Positions 1,706 to 40,352 of a DNA stretch of 41,598 nucleotides are shown piece by piece. Made by a program: the position numbers and the translations under genes. The notes below the pieces were generated by a model, which saw only the letters and a list, made by a program, of their open reading frames with translations, did not search any database and was not told the origin of the DNA. How positions within the stretch are numbered: the first letter of the stretch is position 1; each line of letters begins with the position of its first letter. Source of the stretch: a virus (lineage: Duplodnaviria; Caudoviricetes). The DNA lies in IMG/VR virus record IMGVR_UViG_3300029317_000004, positions 1 to 41,598 of that record; one strand, 5' to 3'.

Positions 1706-4177
1706 ATGAATAATGACTCACAACTATTTAACAAAGAATTGATGCTTGATAAGAACCTTTACATAAGGGAGCACGCTTTAGAAGAAGATGCTCATAATGT
1801 AGCCATTGATAGAGTACGCAAGAAGGTTGAAATGCAAGGGCTGGATAAAACGCAGGTCGGCACAGATAAGGTGTATGAGGTGTTAGCTGACGTAGCTAAT
1901 AACCTCGCGTTATGGTGTGTTGAGCAAGGCGCTAAACGGCGTAAACCTGAAGCGTTTAAGTACATCTCCGCCATAGACCCTTCAGTGTTAGCCTTCGTAG
2001 CGGCGAAGCAGTGTGTGATAACATTAGTTAAAGGGGATGCACCGTTTGTGAAGGTGACACTCGCCATCGGTAGGCGTATTAAAGAATTAGTCGATTACGA
2101 TATTTTCCTGACAGCGCAGAAAGCCGCTTATAAGGACATTGAACACCGCATTAAGTTTGCAGGTACTGAGCGTAAACGACTGCGGGTGTTAAACAAGAAG
2201 TTGAGTGAACTAGGCTTTGAAGGTGCGGATTGGTCAGAACAGGTCTGCATCGCTATTGGCGCTCAGTTACTCGAAACCTTTATAGACACGACCGGCTATC
2301 TACAGGTCATCAACAGGCGCGAAGGCCGTAAGACACGTAAAACTATTGGTATCACACCGCTGGCTGAAGAATGGTTAGCCACCTCAGAGATTAAAGAATC
2401 ACTTTTAGCACCGTTTCATTACCCGATGCTCGTGCCTCCGCAGCCTTGGACAACACCGTATGATGGCGGTTATCTCAATAAGCAGCTACACCCGCTAAAT
2501 TTAGTGTGGTCACGCAATAAGCTGTCTAACCGCATCTTGGAGAATCAAGAGATGCCTGAAGTCTACGAGGCTATCAACGCCCTTCAGGACACACCGTGGC
2601 GTATCAACAAGCGAGTGCAAGAGGTGTTTTCCACCCTATTAGAGTCTAAAGAAGCAGTGGCAGGACTACCCGCTCAAACACCTAGAGAACTGCCTGCTAA
2701 GCCGTGGGAACCCACGCTTACACAGGATGAAATAAGTACGTGGATAGAAGTTAACGAGGAGGCCTTTGCTAACTGGAAACGCAAGACCTCTGAGATTCAC
2801 GTGGAGAACGGAAAGGCCGCTTCCAAGCTATCCGCAGCGACACAGAAGCATACCCTCAGCCTCAAGTTCCTGACTGAAAAGGCGATGTACTACCCGTATG
2901 GCCTCGACTTCAGAGGACGGATTTATGCTGCGGCTGGCGCTGGTAGTATCAATCCGCAGGCAGACGATAGCGGTAAGGCTTTACTAGAGTTTGCGGTGGG
3001 TAAACCTGTCGGTGATGCAGGTGGGTTCTGGCTCGGTGTTCATCTAGCTAACACGTTCGGTGAAGACAAAATCAGCCTAGAGGAGCGCGTACGGTGGGCA
3101 GTCGAACATACCTTAGAGATTGAGCTATACGCGGCTAATCCTTTAGACTTTAGGGGCTGGATGGACGCGGATAAACCCTTTAGTTTTCTAGCGGCTTGCT
3201 TCGAGTGGGCAGGGTTTATGGCGGAAGGTGACAGCTTTGTTTCCCACCTACCCATCGCTGTAGACGGCTCGTGTTCAGGCCTACAACACTTCGGTGCAAT
3301 GCTGAAGGATGAAGAAACCTGTAAGAGCGTTAATGTTATCGGCGCAGGCTCAACACCTACGGACGTGTATACCAAAGTGCGCGATAGAGTGGCAGCGTTA
3401 ATCGCACAAGACACTAACGTGCTAGCTGAAGAATGGAAGACACGTCTGAAGCGTGACACGGTTAAGCAGCCGACCATGACCACGCCGTATGGTGTATCGG
3501 TACGCGGCATGAAAGACCAGATTAAGAACGCCATTATTAAAATGGTCGATAAAGGGTCTATACCGCCGTTTAGTGTGTCAGCTAGTGAAGCCTCCGTGTA
3601 CTTAACGCCCTTCGTGGCTACGGCTATTTCTGAAGTGGTCAGTGCGGCTACTCTAGCAATGGATTGGCTCAGCCACGTAGCGGAGGTGTGCGCGGAAGCT
3701 GACAGGCCGGTACGCTGGACGACACCAACAGGTTTAAGTGTCACACAGGCTTATAAGAAGCAAGTCGGTAAGGTGACTAATCTAATGTACGGAGGCCAGC
3801 GTATGCAGCTACACCTTAAAGTGGACACGCCGCAGATCAACAAGGCTAAATCAAAGGCTGGCTGTGCGCCTAACTTCGTACATAGTATGGATGCCTCACA
3901 CCTCATGGCGACTGTCGCTTACAGTGTCCACAACAACGTTGATACGTTTGCAATGATTCACGATAGCTTCGGTACACATTGTGCCAGCGTTGAAACACTC
4001 TCTGCGGTGTTACGGGAAACCTTCATCACACAATATAACGGCAATGTACTAGCCGACTTATATGCAGAGGTGTCACAGCAATTGCCCGCTGAATCACTGG
4101 CCGACTTACTCCCACCACCGTGCCAAGGTGAGATGGAGTTAGCACAAGTACGAAACTCGGAGTTTTTCTTCGCCTAA
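1706..4177 (+). CDS. T7-like single-subunit DNA-directed RNA polymerase
   Basis: DFRGRIY, motif A AVDGSCSGLQH, motif B RDTVKQPTMTTPYG, PNFVHSMDASH, motif C IHDSFGTH, C-terminal FFFA. Confidence 0.98.
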   Translation: MNNDSQLFNKELMLDKNLYIREHALEEDAHNVAIDRVRKKVEMQGLDKTQVGTDKVYEVLADVANNLALWCVEQGAKRRKPEAFKYISAIDPSVLAFVAAKQCVITLVKGDAPFVKVTLAIGRRIKELVDYDIFLTAQKAAYKDIEHRIKFAGTERKRLRVLNKKLSELGFEGADWSEQVCIAIGAQLLETFIDTTGYLQVINRREGRKTRKTIGITPLAEEWLATSEIKESLLAPFHYPMLVPPQPWTTPYDGGYLNKQLHPLNLVWSRNKLSNRILENQEMPEVYEAINALQDTPWRINKRVQEVFSTLLESKEAVAGLPAQTPRELPAKPWEPTLTQDEISTWIEVNEEAFANWKRKTSEIHVENGKAASKLSAATQKHTLSLKFLTEKAMYYPYGLDFRGRIYAAAGAGSINPQADDSGKALLEFAVGKPVGDAGGFWLGVHLANTFGEDKISLEERVRWAVEHTLEIELYAANPLDFRGWMDADKPFSFLAACFEWAGFMAEGDSFVSHLPIAVDGSCSGLQHFGAMLKDEETCKSVNVIGAGSTPTDVYTKVRDRVAALIAQDTNVLAEEWKTRLKRDTVKQPTMTTPYGVSVRGMKDQIKNAIIKMVDKGSIPPFSVSASEASVYLTPFVATAISEVVSAATLAMDWLSHVAEVCAEADRPVRWTTPTGLSVTQAYKKQVGKVTNLMYGGQRMQLHLKVDTPQINKAKSKAGCAPNFVHSMDASHLMATVAYSVHNNVDTFAMIHDSFGTHCASVETLSAVLRETFITQYNGNVLADLYAEVSQQLPAESLADLLPPPCQGEMELAQVRNSEFFFA

Positions 4178-4240
4178 CCGAAAGACTATCCGCTAATAGA
4201 TTGTTAGGGCAGGCCTTTCTACGAGGCTGCACAGTGCAGC

Positions 4241-4349
4241 TTCCAGAAAGTGCTTGCCTTAAGAACAACAGAACCGAGAGGTCTTCTGTCTAGTCTACCC
4301 GCAGCGCATTGTTTCCAGAAAGTGCTTGCCTTAAGAACAACAGAACCGA
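4241..4349 (+). promoter_or_regulatory. Tandem putative phage RNAP promoters (two identical 37-bp copies); possible replication origin
   Basis: TTCCAGAAAGTGCTTGCCTTAAGAACAACAGAACCGA at 4241..4277 and 4313..4349, directly after the RNAP gene, the position of T7 phi1.1A/phi1.1B. Confidence 0.7.
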
Positions 4350-10531: not shown

Positions 10532-10948
10532 ATGAGATTAAAAACAATGAGTACAGAAAAGCCATTAACGGCCTCGATCTATAGCGAGAAGACGCAGCAC
10601 AACCTGAAGGAGATGGGCGTAGGGCTGACACAGGCCTGCCACGGTATTGCACGTGAATGTGGCTGGTGGGAAACAACTACGGAGCGCGATGTTCCACGGT
10701 TATTAATGCTGTGTGTTTCGGAGTTAGCCGAGGCGATGGAAGCCGATAGAAAGTCGCTTATGGACAGCCACCTTTCACAGCGAAACGGTTTAGAGGTGGA
10801 GCTGGCTGACACTGTTATTCGTATCTTTGATATGGCAGGCGGCTTAGGCCTCGATGTGGCAGGTGCATTAGCTGAGAAGCTGGCCTATAACACAACACGT
10901 CACGACCATAAGCCTGAAGTAAGAGCTGATGGTGGTAAGAAGTATTGA
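10532..10948 (+). CDS. MazG-like NTP pyrophosphohydrolase
   Basis: SELAEAMEADRK...EVELADTVIRIFD acidic motif; start may be ATG 10547. Confidence 0.8.
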   Translation: MRLKTMSTEKPLTASIYSEKTQHNLKEMGVGLTQACHGIARECGWWETTTERDVPRLLMLCVSELAEAMEADRKSLMDSHLSQRNGLEVELADTVIRIFDMAGGLGLDVAGALAEKLAYNTTRHDHKPEVRADGGKKY

Positions 10949-10950
10949 AG

Positions 10951-11010
10951 GTATAACGCAATAAATAATCCGCCACGGTAAAGCTGTGCGGATTATTTGC
11001 CTTGTTAGGC
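10951..11010 (-). other. Integron attC site 1 (60 bp)
   Basis: Minus strand: R'' GCCTAAC, AAGGC, L'' AAATAATC, stem-loop, L' GATTATT, TATTGC, R' GTTATAC. Confidence 0.85.
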
Positions 11011-11029
11011 GCATAACGGAGTAAGTAAC

Positions 11030-11239
11030 ATGGGATATGAAGAAAGGTTAGCAGGAATAAAGGGGATCCACCCAGATATGCCTATCAAGCAGGCTAAATC
11101 TGTCGCTATTCTTCTCGATATGGGGTGGGAATGGTGCGGTCTTGGTGCGAATAATTCAGTTGATATTAAAAGAACGATAATGAATGACTTTACTGAGAGC
11201 GCTTATATACGAGAGGACGGCACTTTTAGGTGCGCCTAA
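11030..11239 (+). CDS. Cassette-borne hypothetical protein A
   Basis: GGAG RBS; bounded by the perfect inverted pair GTTAGGCGCA (11004) and TGCGCCTAAC (11231); stop TAA lies inside the R box. Confidence 0.75.
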   Translation: MGYEERLAGIKGIHPDMPIKQAKSVAILLDMGWEWCGLGANNSVDIKRTIMNDFTESAYIREDGTFRCA

Positions 11240-11294
11240 CGCTATAAATAAGCCGCACAGCTCTATCGTGTCGGGCTTTATTGACTTGTTATGT
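11234..11294 (-). other. Integron attC site 2 (61 bp)
   Basis: Minus strand: R'' ACATAAC, AAGTC, L'' AATAAAGC (one extra base), stem-loop, L' GCTTATT, TATAGC, R' GTTAGGC. Confidence 0.88.
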
Positions 11295-11318
11295 TGCAAC
11301 TAGAAAAAGGAAATAATC

Positions 11319-11537
11319 ATGAGTGATAATGGTAAAAGCTCTGCTATGCGCAAGCAGGATTTGAGAATAAAAGAGCTTGAGCAAAAACTTATTGAAACAG
11401 CTCAAGAACTTGGGTGCATGATAGATATGGCAAACGCAAGGTTAGAGCTGGGCATATCTATTTCAGATACGGATGACCCCGACTATTTTGACAGTCAGAC
11501 AGTACACGAGGCTATGATGCTTGCGAAGGCAATATAA
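11319..11537 (+). CDS. Cassette-borne hypothetical protein B
   Basis: AAGGA RBS; bounded by GTTATGTTGC (11288) and GCAATATAAC (11529), 1 mismatch; stop TAA lies inside the R box. Confidence 0.75.
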   Translation: MSDNGKSSAMRKQDLRIKELEQKLIETAQELGCMIDMANARLELGISISDTDDPDYFDSQTVHEAMMLAKAI

Positions 11538-11586
11538 CGCTATAAATAAGCCGCCGTGCTTTTGCGGTCGGGCTTTATTGACTTGT
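11532..11586 (-). other. Integron attC site 3, interrupted in R'' by the intron
   Basis: Arms identical to attC2 (TAACGCTATAAATAAGCCGC...GTCGGGCTTTATTGACTTGT), then the sequence breaks at TTGT|GTACG. Confidence 0.85.
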
Positions 11587-12165
11587 GTACGCCCGACATG
11601 GGCATTAACTAATGAGGTGAAAGTCCTCTGTAGGAAAATCACGCTCTATTACCTATCAGTATTAGAGAATAACTACTAGCGAATGGCAAGTGCTTATCCG
11701 CAAGGATTGGTTCGAAGGAAGCCGCTAGCAAAACTGCGAGCTAATGAACAAAAACATCATATGAGGCGTAGGCTGGAGGCGAGTTGGCAGAGCCGGCCCC
11801 ACGAAGTGCTTTGGGTCCAAGATAACGAAGCCATGTGTTCTAACGGCCACCGTAAATGATGTAGTTGCGCAGGGAAAGTTAATGCCCTTATCTGGGGAGA
11901 TCTGTTTAACAAGCGATCGGTAAGCAACCAGTTAGGCCCTGGTCTATAAATGCCTTGGCTCCAGAGAGTGTATCGCCTCTGGAGAGCGAAACAGATACAA
12001 ACCGATAGCGCCAACAAGGGTAACCTTGTCGGTGATTAAGCAGAAGTCAGCAGACGGCATAGTAGCCCAACGCCCAGCGTAATGGCTGGGACATGGTGAA
12101 GGCCTGAATTCGAAAATCAATGAGGAGCCTGTGCAGCTCAGTTGTTCCGTATCCGACCGGATTTA
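11587..12165 (+). mobile_element. Group IIC(-attC) intron, 5' fragment (approx. domains I-III), no RT ORF
   Basis: 5' end GTACGCCCGACATGGGC, GAGGTGAAAGTCCTC hairpin, GAAGGAAGC, GCAGAAGTCAGCAGACGGCATAGTAG and GAAGGCCTGAA are typical class C intron motifs; inserted after TTGT of an attC; 3' boundary approximate. Confidence 0.8.
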
Positions 12166-12211
12166 GGGGCGCTGGCGCTTTATGCCGTCGGTTTTAAACG
12201 ACTGGTTATAA
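12160..12211 (-). other. Partial attC site 4
   Basis: Minus strand: R'' TTATAAC, CAGTC, L'' GTTTAAAA, central stem; the R' arm is degenerate or fused to intron sequence. Confidence 0.6.
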
Positions 12212-12240: not shown

Positions 12241-12423
12241 ATGCAGATAGATGATATTGAGCAGGAAGAGCTTGAGGCTAATTGGTCAATGGGCGACTAC
12301 ACAGATAAAGAATGTAGGAATTGTGGTAGAAATAGGGTTCGCAAATGCCAGAACGGTAAGACTAGATGCGAGAAATGCAACTGGATAAAAGAAGATGACC
12401 AGTATTGCGACTTAGCCTTATAA
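12241..12423 (+). CDS. Cassette-borne Zn-finger-like hypothetical protein
   Basis: CRNC...C...CEKC; AAGGA RBS; bounded by the perfect 11-bp inverted pair GTTATAAGGCT (12205) and AGCCTTATAAC (12414). Confidence 0.75.
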   Translation: MQIDDIEQEELEANWSMGDYTDKECRNCGRNRVRKCQNGKTRCEKCNWIKEDDQYCDLAL

Positions 12424-12445
12424 CAGCGTAATAAGCCGCGCACCA
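12418..12445 (-). other. Half attC (L'-R') or attI-like site at the array edge
   Basis: Minus strand GCGGCTTATT-ACGCT-GTTATAA, similar to the attC2/3 arm; no partner arm found before polA. Confidence 0.5.
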
Positions 12446-12545: not shown

Positions 12546-14366
12546 ATGAAAATCTTTGACATAGAAACAGACGGCTTCCTAGAAGACCTTACGCAGATAC
12601 ATTGCGCGTGGCTCTACGATACGGAAACTGAGCAGTACACTTGTTACAACAATCAGAACAACGGACAGCTTTCTATCGCTGACTTCTTAGCTGAAACCAG
12701 CAGCGGGGACTTACTCGCTCACTACGGTAACGGCTTTGATTATCTCGCCATCAAGCAGCTCTACCCAACGTGGACACCTGCTGGAAAGTTGTACGATAGC
12801 GTGTTAATTAGTCAATTGATCTGGACAAACCTGAAAGACCTCGACTTCGGGCGGTTGACTAAACCACGCTTCAAGAACTTCCCTAAACGGCTTATCGGCT
12901 CTCATTCTCTAAAAGCATGGGGCTACCGCTTAGGCGAGTATAAGGGTGACTTCGGTGAAACAACCGATTGGGGTGTTTGGTCGCAGGATATGGAGGATTA
13001 CTGCAAGCAGGATGTAGTGGTCACTAAGAAGTTGTGGGAGCTAATCTTAACTAAGAATTACAGCCAACCCGCTATTGAGCTAGAGCATGACTTCGCGGCT
13101 ATCATCAAGCGACAAGAACAGTTCGGCTTCAAGTTTGACGAGAGGAAAGCACGTGCGCTACAAGGTCGGCTAATGATGCGTAAAGCGGCACTCGCTGACG
13201 AGTTACAGGCGTTCTTCTTACCGTGGGAAGTGGTCGTTGATCCGCACTTTGTACCCAAGGTAAACAACAAGGCACGTGGTTATATTAAAGGCGTACCTTT
13301 CGTTAAAAAGAAGATTATCACCTTTAACCCGAATAGCCGTGACCACATCGCTGACCGGCTAATAGCCCTCTATGGGTGGAAGCCAACAGAGTTCAGTGAG
13401 AGCAGCCATAAACCTACCGTAGACGAAACGGTACTGAAGACACTGAACTACTCGCCTGCACCGTTGTTGATTGAATACCTCACCGTTAATAAGCGGCTTG
13501 CGATGTTAGCAGACGGTAAACAGGCGTGGCTTAAGCAGGTCAAGCAGGGGCGTATTCACGGTCGTGTCAACACGATGGGTGCGGTCACCGGCAGGTGTAC
13601 ACACTCTAACCCTAATGTCGCTCAAGTCCCTGCGGTCAGAGCAGCTTACGGGGCTGAGTGCCGTGAACTGTTTACCGTAGATAGCGGCTACACACTTATT
13701 GGTGCAGATGCTTCAGGTTTAGAACTGAGGTGTCTAGCGCATTATATGGCAGCTTACGATGATGGAGCTTACGGGGATGTCGTGCTTAACGGCGATATTC
13801 ACACCGAGAACCAGCACGCCGCAGGTCTGCCCACACGTGATAACGCTAAGACCTTTATTTACGGATTCTTATACGGCGCGGGTGACGGCAAGATAGGGGA
13901 GATTGTCGGCAAAGGTAGCGGTGAAGGCAAGCGTCTACGCGCTAAATTCCTCGCCTCACTACCCGCGCTAGAAAGTCTTACTACAGCCGTCAAAGCTAAA
14001 GCCGTGCGCTCTAAGAAACTAAAAGGTCTGGATGGGAGAGTGTTACACGTTCGCTCACCACATGCAGCCCTCAACACGCTCCTGCAATCAGCCGGTGCGC
14101 TCATTATGAAGCAAGCCTTGATCGAGTTAGAACGGCTGTTACAAGAGGCAGGACTAAAGAATAGCCACCAAAGACCGACCCGCCCTGACTATGAGTTCGT
14201 TAATAACGTGCATGACGAATACGGCATACAGGTACTTCCTGAACACGTAGCACTAATTGAGAAGCAGGCCACAGCAGCGATGACCTTAGCCGGAGAACAC
14301 TTCAGCTTTAGGTGTCAGATTGACGGTGAAGCTCAAGTAGGCAAAACGTGGAAGGACGTACATTAA
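12546..14366 (+). CDS. Family A DNA polymerase (T7 gp5-like)
   Basis: Exo I FDIETDG, HSLKAWGYRLG, TGRCTH, motif A DASGLELR, motif B RDNAKTFIYGFLYG, motif C VHDE. Confidence 0.98.
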   Translation: MKIFDIETDGFLEDLTQIHCAWLYDTETEQYTCYNNQNNGQLSIADFLAETSSGDLLAHYGNGFDYLAIKQLYPTWTPAGKLYDSVLISQLIWTNLKDLDFGRLTKPRFKNFPKRLIGSHSLKAWGYRLGEYKGDFGETTDWGVWSQDMEDYCKQDVVVTKKLWELILTKNYSQPAIELEHDFAAIIKRQEQFGFKFDERKARALQGRLMMRKAALADELQAFFLPWEVVVDPHFVPKVNNKARGYIKGVPFVKKKIITFNPNSRDHIADRLIALYGWKPTEFSESSHKPTVDETVLKTLNYSPAPLLIEYLTVNKRLAMLADGKQAWLKQVKQGRIHGRVNTMGAVTGRCTHSNPNVAQVPAVRAAYGAECRELFTVDSGYTLIGADASGLELRCLAHYMAAYDDGAYGDVVLNGDIHTENQHAAGLPTRDNAKTFIYGFLYGAGDGKIGEIVGKGSGEGKRLRAKFLASLPALESLTTAVKAKAVRSKKLKGLDGRVLHVRSPHAALNTLLQSAGALIMKQALIELERLLQEAGLKNSHQRPTRPDYEFVNNVHDEYGIQVLPEHVALIEKQATAAMTLAGEHFSFRCQIDGEAQVGKTWKDVH

Positions 14367-14384: not shown

Positions 14385-15113
14385 ATGAAATTAGAATTAA
14401 GAGCGGTACAGGTAGCCAGCCTTGCCTATAAAGACGCGCAGGCTTTCAATGATGCAGGTTACTACAACGTGGCCGGTATCACAGACGAGGACACCAGTAC
14501 GCAAGCATTTATCGTGGAGGATGACGATTACCTCTATTTAACCTTTACCGGCACTGAGAGCTTTACCGACCTAATCACCGACCTTCGCTTCCTTAAGAAA
14601 AAGGCCTTTGGTCAGTTCCGCTTACACCGTGGCTTTTGGGAAGCATGGCGCTCAGTGTCTGACCGTGTAGCCGGTGAAGTTATGCAGCGTCAATTAGATG
14701 CTAAGGCTAACGAAGATATTATGAAGCCTGTTGTTTACTGTGGTCATTCCCTCGGCGCGGCCTTAGTAACGATAGCTGCTGCCACACATAACCCTAATTA
14801 CTGCATCACATTTGGTTCGCCACCTGTAGGAGGCAAGCGCTTTCGTACGCATACGGCAGAAGCTAATACGCTCTACTTACGCTACGCACTAGACGGCGAC
14901 CCTGTACCACGCTTGCTTAAGTGGAATCCGTTTTATAGACACGTAGGGCGCTTATTGTTCATCGACTCTGAAGGTGAAACACATATCAATCCTAGCTGGT
15001 GGTCGGCGCTGAAGATGCGACTCAGCGGTTCGAGAGATATAACTGACCACGCTGTTAGAAGCTATCACACACAAGTATTCTTAGATAAGGAGGGGCGATG
15101 TACAAGGAATTAA
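14385..15113 (+). CDS. Class 3 lipase-like alpha/beta hydrolase
   Basis: FTGT, LHRGF, nucleophile motif GHSLGAA, TFGSP, DPVPRL, late DH. Confidence 0.88.
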   Translation: MKLELRAVQVASLAYKDAQAFNDAGYYNVAGITDEDTSTQAFIVEDDDYLYLTFTGTESFTDLITDLRFLKKKAFGQFRLHRGFWEAWRSVSDRVAGEVMQRQLDAKANEDIMKPVVYCGHSLGAALVTIAAATHNPNYCITFGSPPVGGKRFRTHTAEANTLYLRYALDGDPVPRLLKWNPFYRHVGRLLFIDSEGETHINPSWWSALKMRLSGSRDITDHAVRSYHTQVFLDKEGRCTRN

Positions 15114-37176: not shown

Positions 37177-37213
37177 ATTAAAGCTCCATAGTAGGTGAGT
37201 GTATGTGTGAGGT

Positions 37214-37376
37214 TGTAGAGTGCAGTAATACTGTAGTGGTCAATAAGTGACCATTAGCGTGCAAGGATGCTGTAGAGTGCAGCAAGACTGTAGTGGTCAA
37301 TAAGTGACCATTAGCGTGCTGAGTTTCTAACTAAAAAATAAAAATAGGAAAGCGTTTTGTGGTCAATAAGTGACCA
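37214..37376. repeat. Tandem repeat with three copies of the palindrome TGGTCA-ATAAG-TGACCA
   Basis: 49-bp units at 37214 and 37271 (2 mismatches); 17-bp core at 37237, 37294 and 37360. Confidence 0.9.
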
Positions 37377-37649
37377 GTAGTGTTCTGAGTTGTTACCCTA
37401 ATTGTGAGGGACTTTATGCACCGTTTTGGTGCGATAGAAACAAGAGGTTAGGCGTGTAGCCCTCACCAGAAAACTGTGGAAAACTACGTGATGCCATGCC
37501 CTAGCACAGCAGGCGCTCGTCCTATATAAGGGGGTGGGGTGGGCGGCCTAACGTGTCAAGAAGGGCTTTGAGTCTAGCGAGCGCTACCTATTGAAAGTTG
37601 ATGTTTTCTTTTTATTTCAACAGGTTGTGGCTACTCGCTAGACTTCGCG

Positions 37650-38207: not shown

Positions 38208-38268
38208 GATTGGTTACTCTTTAATATATGGGGCGGTTAATTTAATTGATTTATTTACACGAAAGCAC

Positions 38269-38297
38269 TTGCGTATGCGCTAATGAAAGACTATATT
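38269..38297 (+). promoter_or_regulatory. Sigma70 early promoter
   Basis: TTGCGT-17 bp-TATATT with AT-rich upstream sequence, before ardA. Confidence 0.7.
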
Positions 38298-38347
38298 ATC
38301 TCTCAAGCGCAAACAGTAGCGCATCATTAACTAAACAAGGAACACAC

Positions 38348-38899
38348 ATGAACGCATTAGCAGCTATGAGCAACCAAGAGTTAACAAACACATCTTCTAT
38401 GTACATTCACTACTGGGAGCTTTCACACTATAACAATGGGCAGCATGTTGGACGCTTCTTTGACCTTGAAGGTGTGACAGAAGACGAACATCAGACAGAA
38501 ATAGCAGAATGGCTTGAGGAGGTTAGCAAGGCTAGCGGTGAACTCTGCGAGGAAATCATAGTAGGTGACGCTGAAGGTATACCGCGTGAGTATCTTGGTG
38601 AATGGTCTATAGATAGCGGGTTCTTTGAGTTCAACGAGTTTCTAAGTAGCACGCACCTAGAGCAGGAAGCTGTCGAAGCTGGACTCTATTTAGACATACC
38701 GCTTGAGAGCTTAGAAGACGCATATCAAGGCTGCTGGTCTTCAGATGAGGACTTTGCAGAGGAGCAAGCCGATTCATGCGGCTTACTAGATAACGCTACT
38801 AGCTGGCCTCTAAACTGCATCGACTGGGAAATGGCAGCACGTGAGCTTATGTATGACTATAGCGAGCATGACGGGCATTACTTCAGCGACAACTATTAA
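38348..38899 (+). CDS. ardA: ArdA antirestriction protein
   Basis: YNNG...G.FFDL, EEIIVGDAEGIP, YQG...SDEDFAEE, IDWEMAAREL; very acidic; AAGGA RBS before ATG 38348. Confidence 0.88.
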   Translation: MNALAAMSNQELTNTSSMYIHYWELSHYNNGQHVGRFFDLEGVTEDEHQTEIAEWLEEVSKASGELCEEIIVGDAEGIPREYLGEWSIDSGFFEFNEFLSSTHLEQEAVEAGLYLDIPLESLEDAYQGCWSSDEDFAEEQADSCGLLDNATSWPLNCIDWEMAARELMYDYSEHDGHYFSDNY

Positions 38900-39584: not shown

Positions 39585-39605
39585 TGTTCTTATGGCAAGC
39601 ACTTT
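39585..39605 (-). promoter_or_regulatory. Putative phage RNAP promoter facing the late operon
   Basis: Minus strand AAAGTGCTTGCCATAAGAACA, 20/21 identical to the + strand copies. Confidence 0.6.
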
Positions 39606-40305: not shown

Positions 40306-40352
40306 CTTGACATGGATGAGGTCGGTGGTTCGAATCCACTCGTGCCTACCAA
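40306..40352 (+). repeat. attR core (duplicated 3' half of tRNA-Val)
   Basis: Identical to 81..127. Confidence 0.95.

Follow-up and report, generated by a model that had tools for sequence, protein, structure and literature searches.

The bottom-strand selectivity of integron recombination is held to ensure that cassette genes face the promoter Pc, and single antisense cassettes occur in bacterial arrays, which fits the bacterial counts given below (6/281). Phage CALINs, group IIC-attC introns, attG insertion and mobile attI pieces are already known. In the available text of Qi et al. (2023, PMC9892861), phage CALINs are clusters of attC sites without intI, and their sites are recombined by IntI1 with a bottom-strand preference; attC1 of PH101, cloned as the bottom strand, recombined with attI1 by IntI1 better than did the top strand. 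According to the available portions of the respective papers, IIC-attC introns enter the attC bottom strand (Leon et al. 2010, PMC3001079), short pieces of attI can be mobile (PMC12901181), and IntI can insert outside integrons, at attG (bioRxiv 2022.09.11.507474). Canonical cassettes of class 1 and sedentary chromosomal integrons, as described in the accessible sections of Nivina et al. (2016, PMC5027507), share with the locus reported here the R''-L''-L'-R' order, spacers of 5 and 6 nt, the bulge positions, complementary ends and a stop in an RYYYAAC box. Unlike the cassettes of that description, those of our locus carry their genes on the bottom strand, behind their own attC and with the stop in R', and have neither intI nor Pc.

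The window, by which we mean the whole stretch of DNA that was analysed (41,598 nucleotides), is one 41.6-kb record holding an integrated T7-like temperate phage. Its phage genes include an arm-binding integrase, an RNA polymerase, a ribonucleotide reductase, a mazG-like gene and structural genes. Only 1.2 kb of host flank is present, and beyond the right copy of a 47-bp repeat lies a frame that we take, from its sequence, to be thrS; the repeat in a tRNA gene, with this thrS-like host gene after it, identifies the record as an integrated prophage. The cassette array lies between the mazG-like gene and the polymerase gene, inside a run of plus-strand genes, and the features needed here are as follows.

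81-127 and 40306-40352: the 47-bp attL/attR repeat, in a tRNA gene.
10532..10948, plus strand: mazG-like pyrophosphatase gene (PHROG 5658, E 9e-49), an ordinary phage gene and the left neighbour of the array.
10951..11010, top strand probably minus, nearly strand-symmetric: attC1 (24.2 bits minus, 20.6 bits plus); predicted crossover 10956/10957.
11030..11239, plus strand: ORF1, 69 aa, no named function, three non-self homologues at 75-77%; predicted cassette 1 at 10957-11239.
11234..11294, minus strand: attC2 (45.9 bits, no plus match at E<=10); predicted crossover 11239/11240.
11319..11537, plus strand: ORF2, 72 aa, no named function, 13 non-self homologues; predicted cassette 2 at 11240-11537.
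11532..11586, minus strand: attC3 (21.5 bits, no plus match at E<=10), its R'' interrupted by the intron; predicted crossover 11537/11538.
11587..12178, plus strand: group IIC-attC intron remnant (Rfam RF02001 and RF01998), domains I-III and the start of IV.
12179..12211, minus strand: probable R''-side half of a fourth attC, which resembles attC arms of other phages and does not occur in the intron's relatives.
12241..12423, plus strand: ORF3, 60 aa, cysteine-rich (PHROG 24897, E 4e-15), two homologues at 90% and 67%.
12418..12436, minus strand: attI-like terminal site with a 7-bp L-like box, a 5-bp spacer and G/TT; predicted crossover 12423/12424.
12546..14366, plus strand: a gene that we take, from its sequence and position, to encode an A-type DNA polymerase; the right neighbour of the array.

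No attC was found in the 57 mazG homologue loci searched (68 fetched) or in the 51 loci of polymerase relatives searched (80 fetched), and no empty mazG-polymerase allele was found, the closest mazG relatives being 80% identical and the polymerase relatives only 53%. The mazG gene itself was considered as a cassette and ruled out, as it has no complementary start and its homologues are plain genes. A contig identical to the window over 6216 bases (L365) was not counted as independent, and run X1, possibly the sample from which the window came, was likewise left out of the independent evidence. A promoter scan returned one site against 3.7 expected.

The three attC sites, which fall within 640 bp, match a canonical model over its full length, are its only significant matches in the 41.6-kb window, and all have inverted R''/R' and L''/L' boxes with 5- and 6-nt spacers. 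The initial annotation had read all three as canonical on the minus strand. Scoring each strand separately bears this out for attC2 and attC3, which match on minus only, so that plus is not their top strand, but leaves attC1 ambiguous, with nearly equal scores on the two strands. The covariance model used was built from 12 canonical bacterial attC sites, 11 with the next gene starting on the top strand plus one class 1 site; since the 11 had been drawn with a pattern derived from the window's own attC, likeness to the model is by construction, and polarity is anchored independently. The attC model R1 missed the sites of PH101, so negative scans with it are weak for other attC families. The extra base that had been noticed in the L'' arm of attC2 is present in the model alignment, and attC3 has one too. 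Extrahelical bases on the R''-side arm, which mark the bottom strand, are present in attC2 and attC3 but missing in attC1, whose L stem has none and whose single bulge sits on the non-canonical arm. The bulges of attC2 lie at top-strand positions 16, about 20-22, and 24, and the first bulge in both attC2 and attC3 is T where G is usual. The polarity of attC1 rests on its spacers and on its likeness to attC2 and attC3, and its top strand is probably minus. The attC1 hairpin stands out from shuffles (z -4.8), shuffled sequences fold as well as attC2 and attC3 do (plus-strand z 0.65 and -0.58), and folding energy does not separate the strands of attC2 and attC3, the plus strand of attC2 not being the more stable.

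A marker of polarity that is independent of attC scores is supplied by the intron remnant, and through it this window adds evidence beyond those scores. The intron begins at 11587, directly after TTGT, in the attC bottom strand; this junction is colinear with the ones that introns form in the catB3, aadA1 and aadA16 attC sites, there too in the bottom strand, and over the 5' ribozyme part the remnant is 75-82% identical to introns of plasmid integrons. The insertion after TTGT in the bottom strand and this degree of identity are what it shares with the introns of Leon et al. (PMC3001079, in the portions available). It differs from them in being sense to the flanking genes rather than opposite, and in being a dead remnant; it lacks a reverse transcriptase and domains V-VI. 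In the class 1 integrons that we compared, the cassette genes run opposite to the intron, whereas in the window they lie on the intron's strand, so the earlier suggestion that the insertion side of the intron agrees with the attC polarity is upheld. Because the remnant sits in attC3 exactly as such introns sit in class 1 integrons, the plus strand is the bottom strand. As far as sequence can tell, then, the reversed polarity is real, the coding strand being the bottom strand, and the canonical layout, in which a top-strand ORF precedes its attC, is absent. Intron likeness ends at 12178 (contigs of 4/4 runs), and intron-free relatives of attC3 diverge after 11586. One other IIC-attC intron was found in viral contigs, in an array that is canonical and host-like. 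An IIC-attC intron of a Photobacterium plasmid (L125:4001-4710) has no protein gene and keeps domains V-VI; the start of domain IV is common to it and the remnant in the window.

The sequence that follows the remnant modifies the picture for ORF3. Positions 12179-12211 were considered as the start of an intron protein, which is ruled out because intron likeness stops at 12178 in all four runs. The R'' of this segment is complementary at 10 of 10 positions to the end of ORF3, and the segment is probably ORF3's own site, fused to the intron by a deletion from domain IV. The claim that each plus-strand ORF has its attC upstream therefore stands for ORF1 and ORF2 and needs amending for ORF3, which is preceded by more than attC3 and its intron, namely this half attC. 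Similarly, the TAA stops of all three ORFs (11237-39, 11535-37 and 12421-23) do end at AA/C, as had been proposed, compared with 3 of 25 other plus-strand ORFs ending in TAAC; that each stop is the complement of an attC R' does not extend to ORF3, whose stop lies in the non-hairpin terminal site.

The terminal site has no hairpin partner and no fold, and its box spacing is that of attI1. Of the features of an attI, the L box, the 5-bp spacer, G/TT and the lack of a hairpin at the array head are present; an adjacent intI and Pc are absent. With the attI1 simple site and the delta-attI cassettes (PMC12901181, in part) it shares the 7-bp L box, the 5-bp spacer and G/TT. It differs from attI1 and from attG, so far as the available text describes them, in having another sequence and no adjacent intI, in occurring in several copies per phage genome and in lying transcriptionally downstream of genes. 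The same motif closes reversed arrays in other phages. A relaxed form of the pattern matched 41 viral loci, many of them by chance; in 14 of 17 motif-bearing loci that we picked by hand as likely real, the motif directly follows the TAA stop of an ORF, and this ORF is often the final one in a row of genes that end in attC. In the complete 52.8-kb phage G006 (loci L095-L097, L104, L115, L116 and L183), which has several arrays with 11 or more attC matches in all, six exact copies of the motif are spread over the two strands, and the attC top strands lie opposite to them. In another locus (L099:1877-1894) the motif stands in place of the left arm of a longer attC, as a hybrid site.

At the left edge, the array meets ordinary phage DNA, and the coordinates confirm that the crossover lies 8 nt past the mazG stop, as the initial annotation had it. 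Its comparison of this edge to insertion at a secondary site is weakened: with a conserved attI-like site on the right, there is no need to assume a random secondary site on the left. The two edges may be halves of one dedicated target that was there before the cassettes; alternatively, a block that already carried the motif may have inserted at a secondary site and left this junction.

Whether the genes move as cassettes can be judged from their ends. ORF1 to ORF3 all have full-length homologues and ribosome-binding-like sequences. When the decamer on the GTT side upstream of each gene is compared with the gene's downstream end, the two are complementary at 10/10 positions for ORF1, 9/10 for ORF2 and 10/10 for ORF3, against 4-8 in cross pairs. 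From this complementarity the units can be recognised as cassettes, but it does not tell which hairpin moves with which unit. In run X2, 11236-11538 is present with five differences, with another cassette upstream, unrelated sequence past TAAC and no attC3, so that ORF2 does not travel with attC3. The attC before ORF2 in that record differs at three loop positions, a different attC there is identical to attC2, and only 24 downstream letters are available; the record is thus supportive, not decisive, on which hairpin goes with ORF2. Runs X1, X2 and X5 on 11237-11586 brought up several more contigs with a site like attC2 or attC3 and, after it on the bottom strand, a start with its ribosome-binding site, which on their sequence are further reversed cassettes from the same samples.

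One could suppose instead that gene-less attC elements insert singly at the AAC of resident phage TAA-C stops and that the genes are immobile as units. IntI does insert at a minimal GWT motif (bioRxiv 2022.09.11.507474, in its available text), and a homologue of ORF2 at 75% identity (one sequence, in L364/L366) is a plain phage gene with no attC that already ends in TAAC. Against this stand the gene flanks, complementary at 9-10 of 10 positions where cross pairs are not, and the presence of ORF2 in another array, bounded at the same TAAC. We regard this alternative as unlikely; single attC insertion may describe the origin of the cassettes, not their present state.

If the genes are carried as reversed cassettes, the next question is how the layout is distributed. 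With a single attC pattern, 67 loci were obtained from viral contigs and 169 from bacterial genomes, the bacterial set comprising 5 of 64 parts, an estimated 1800 or so stretches in which Lysobacterales dominate. Sites with fewer than 200 bases on a side were dropped, and the remainder were scored on each strand for a ribosome-binding site and start after the site. Among 56 viral sites, 38 had this signal on the bottom strand only, none on the top only, one on both and 17 on neither, as compared with 6, 64, 0 and 211 among 281 bacterial sites (Fisher p 3e-23, the sites not being independent). The viral bottom-strand signal comes from 38 of 52 contigs with 34 distinct flanks, near-identical phages each being counted. 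A cruder test by longest ORF gave 39 bottom and 14 top of 66 on the right side of viral sites, against 35 and 195 of 303 for bacterial ones, and an even split on the left side of viral sites (22 bottom, 21 top). Of 17 attC matches beside intI in one gammaproteobacterial order, 14 have a top-strand ORF whose end falls at R'', the canonical arrangement. Exceptions exist among the viral sites, TJE1 being canonical. The distinct class that the initial annotation had suggested is thereby supported: dozens of other phage sequences have this layout, and the reversed cassettes appear to form a phage-associated class. One related cassette encodes a Lar-like restriction-alleviation protein.

A second alternative holds that these are rare antisense cassettes of the host integron pool, selected because a phage operon can read them, with no phage pool or docking site. 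The attC family of the window's sites is indeed shared with bacteria, the reversed layout occurs in the six bacterial sites counted above, and the intron must derive from a cell with integrons. But neither ORF1 nor ORF2 has a match in plasmids, and relatives of ORF1 to ORF3 were found only in phage or unassigned short contigs, which agrees with a phage rather than an integron cargo. Matches to PHROG families were obtained for 9 of 34 viral bottom-strand ORFs and for none of the 6 bacterial ones. The terminal motif, moreover, was found in 0 of 401 gammaproteobacterial genomes and 0 of 30 intI loci; both sets centre on the genome of an unrelated locus, maybe not the host's, and the host's own attI perhaps lies outside them. 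The host-pool origin therefore seems to us quite unlikely. As to the individual genes, the Atlas matches of ORF1 and ORF2 name no family, an alignment search for ORF1 in the five motif-bearing records found nothing, and no relatives of ORF3 were located in viral contigs; weak Lactococcus phage matches to ORF3 were set aside.

The array has the makeup of a CALIN, at least two close attC sites without intI, and not that of a complete integron, which has intI next to attI. No IntI was found in the window, whose integrase is of the arm-binding prophage type and does not match the IntI model, and of 50 related viral records, a set that includes 10 with a completeness of 90% or more, not one gave a match above the TIGR02249 cut-off. 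Five motif-bearing records, two of them complete and including G006, contained no tyrosine recombinase. That a different, phage-type recombinase cleaves the other strand, making plus functionally the top strand and the cassettes ordinary, is very unlikely: attC1 does score almost equally on both strands and lacks canonical bulges, and bulge loss or inversion relaxes strand choice (PMC5027507, in part), but attC2, attC3 and the intron retain the canonical asymmetry, X2 has ORF2 without attC3, the right array end carries a half-site as minus-top polarity predicts, and neither the motif-bearing records nor the window offer such an enzyme.

We consider it probable that a host IntI acting in trans recombines the reversed cassettes at their coding-strand R', with entry at the attI-like site and expression by operon read-through. 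On this reading the array is a row of integron-type cassettes in which the attC bottom strand is the coding strand and a hairpin lies ahead of each gene, and the row ends in the attI-like docking site. Cleavage would fall at AA/C in the plus-strand R', and the mobile unit would consist of the hairpin, the ribosome-binding site, the gene and its TAA; with its own TAA inside, a unit would not lose its stop codon on being joined to any other. Entry of new units would take place on the right, at 12423/12424, in which case ORF3 would have arrived last and ORF1 first. Expression would come from transcripts of the co-directional phage operon, which would read through the genes and continue into the polymerase gene. 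Were a cassette captured by a host integron, its gene would lie antisense to Pc, so that silence from the host Pc and expression in the phage, both proposed earlier, would follow from the geometry. Later, the IIC-attC intron would have entered attC3, and a subsequent deletion would have taken out the 3' part of the intron together with what remained of that cassette and one half of the attC that followed; because of this history ORF3 is probably fixed, and cassettes 1 and 2 may still excise. A host integron integrase is the likely catalyst that inserts and excises cassettes at the docking site.

More tentatively, at somewhat less than an even chance in our estimate, phages may run an integron system of their own without an integrase gene. 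Such a system would consist of a separate pool of reversed cassettes, made from ordinary phage genes, and a short attI-like docking site that spreads to several places in a genome; the host IntI would shuffle the cassettes, and their polarity would leave them unexpressed in host integrons. In this layout IIC-attC introns have the same sense as phage mRNA, so that new cassettes could arise on phage transcripts.

In open PMC papers and the main text of bioRxiv preprints, we found no description of a reversed class of phage cassettes, nor, in their available portions, anything on it in PMC8876359, PMC11551772, PMC13676570 or bioRxiv 2022.02.06.479319. The available text of Qi et al. (PMC9892861) does not use the words "antisense", "opposite" or "reverse" and describes no phage attI-like site and no intron. 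It calls TJE1 and PH101 typical arrays; here, TJE1 is canonical and attC1 of PH101 is reversed, its bottom strand lying on the strand of the annotated phage genes (KR534323 75900-76700; L476, L477). PH101 is the best outside anchor for the proposed mechanism, but its cassette is not a clean case, because the stretch between its two sites also contains about 250 unannotated bases. If the present reading is true, a phage-biased pool built the opposite way would mean that phages put host integron integrases to use for reshuffling accessory genes of their own. The origin of cassettes becomes testable, in that a plain phage gene already ending in TAAC is among the near relatives of ORF2. The window offers a marker of polarity independent of the site scores, the intron, as well as a small array that lends itself to direct assay.

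Several further features of the prophage deserve record. At 4172-4209, an RYYYAAC box also contains the stop of the RNA polymerase gene, a GTT box comes about 25 nt later, and the attC model gives a weak score of 13.2 bits; this is possibly a collapsed attC or a chance match. An 18-bp motif occurs four times (1403-1420, 4247-4264 and 4319-4336 on the plus strand, 39588-39605 on the minus strand) upstream of gene blocks, against 0.02 expected by chance, and is promoter- or operator-like. Three 54-bp repeats at 37209-37385, with terminase genes on either side, are a candidate packaging or regulatory region. Finally, a class 3 lipase gene (14385-15113) precedes a lysozyme-like gene, and an ArdA-like anti-restriction gene lies at 38246-38899.
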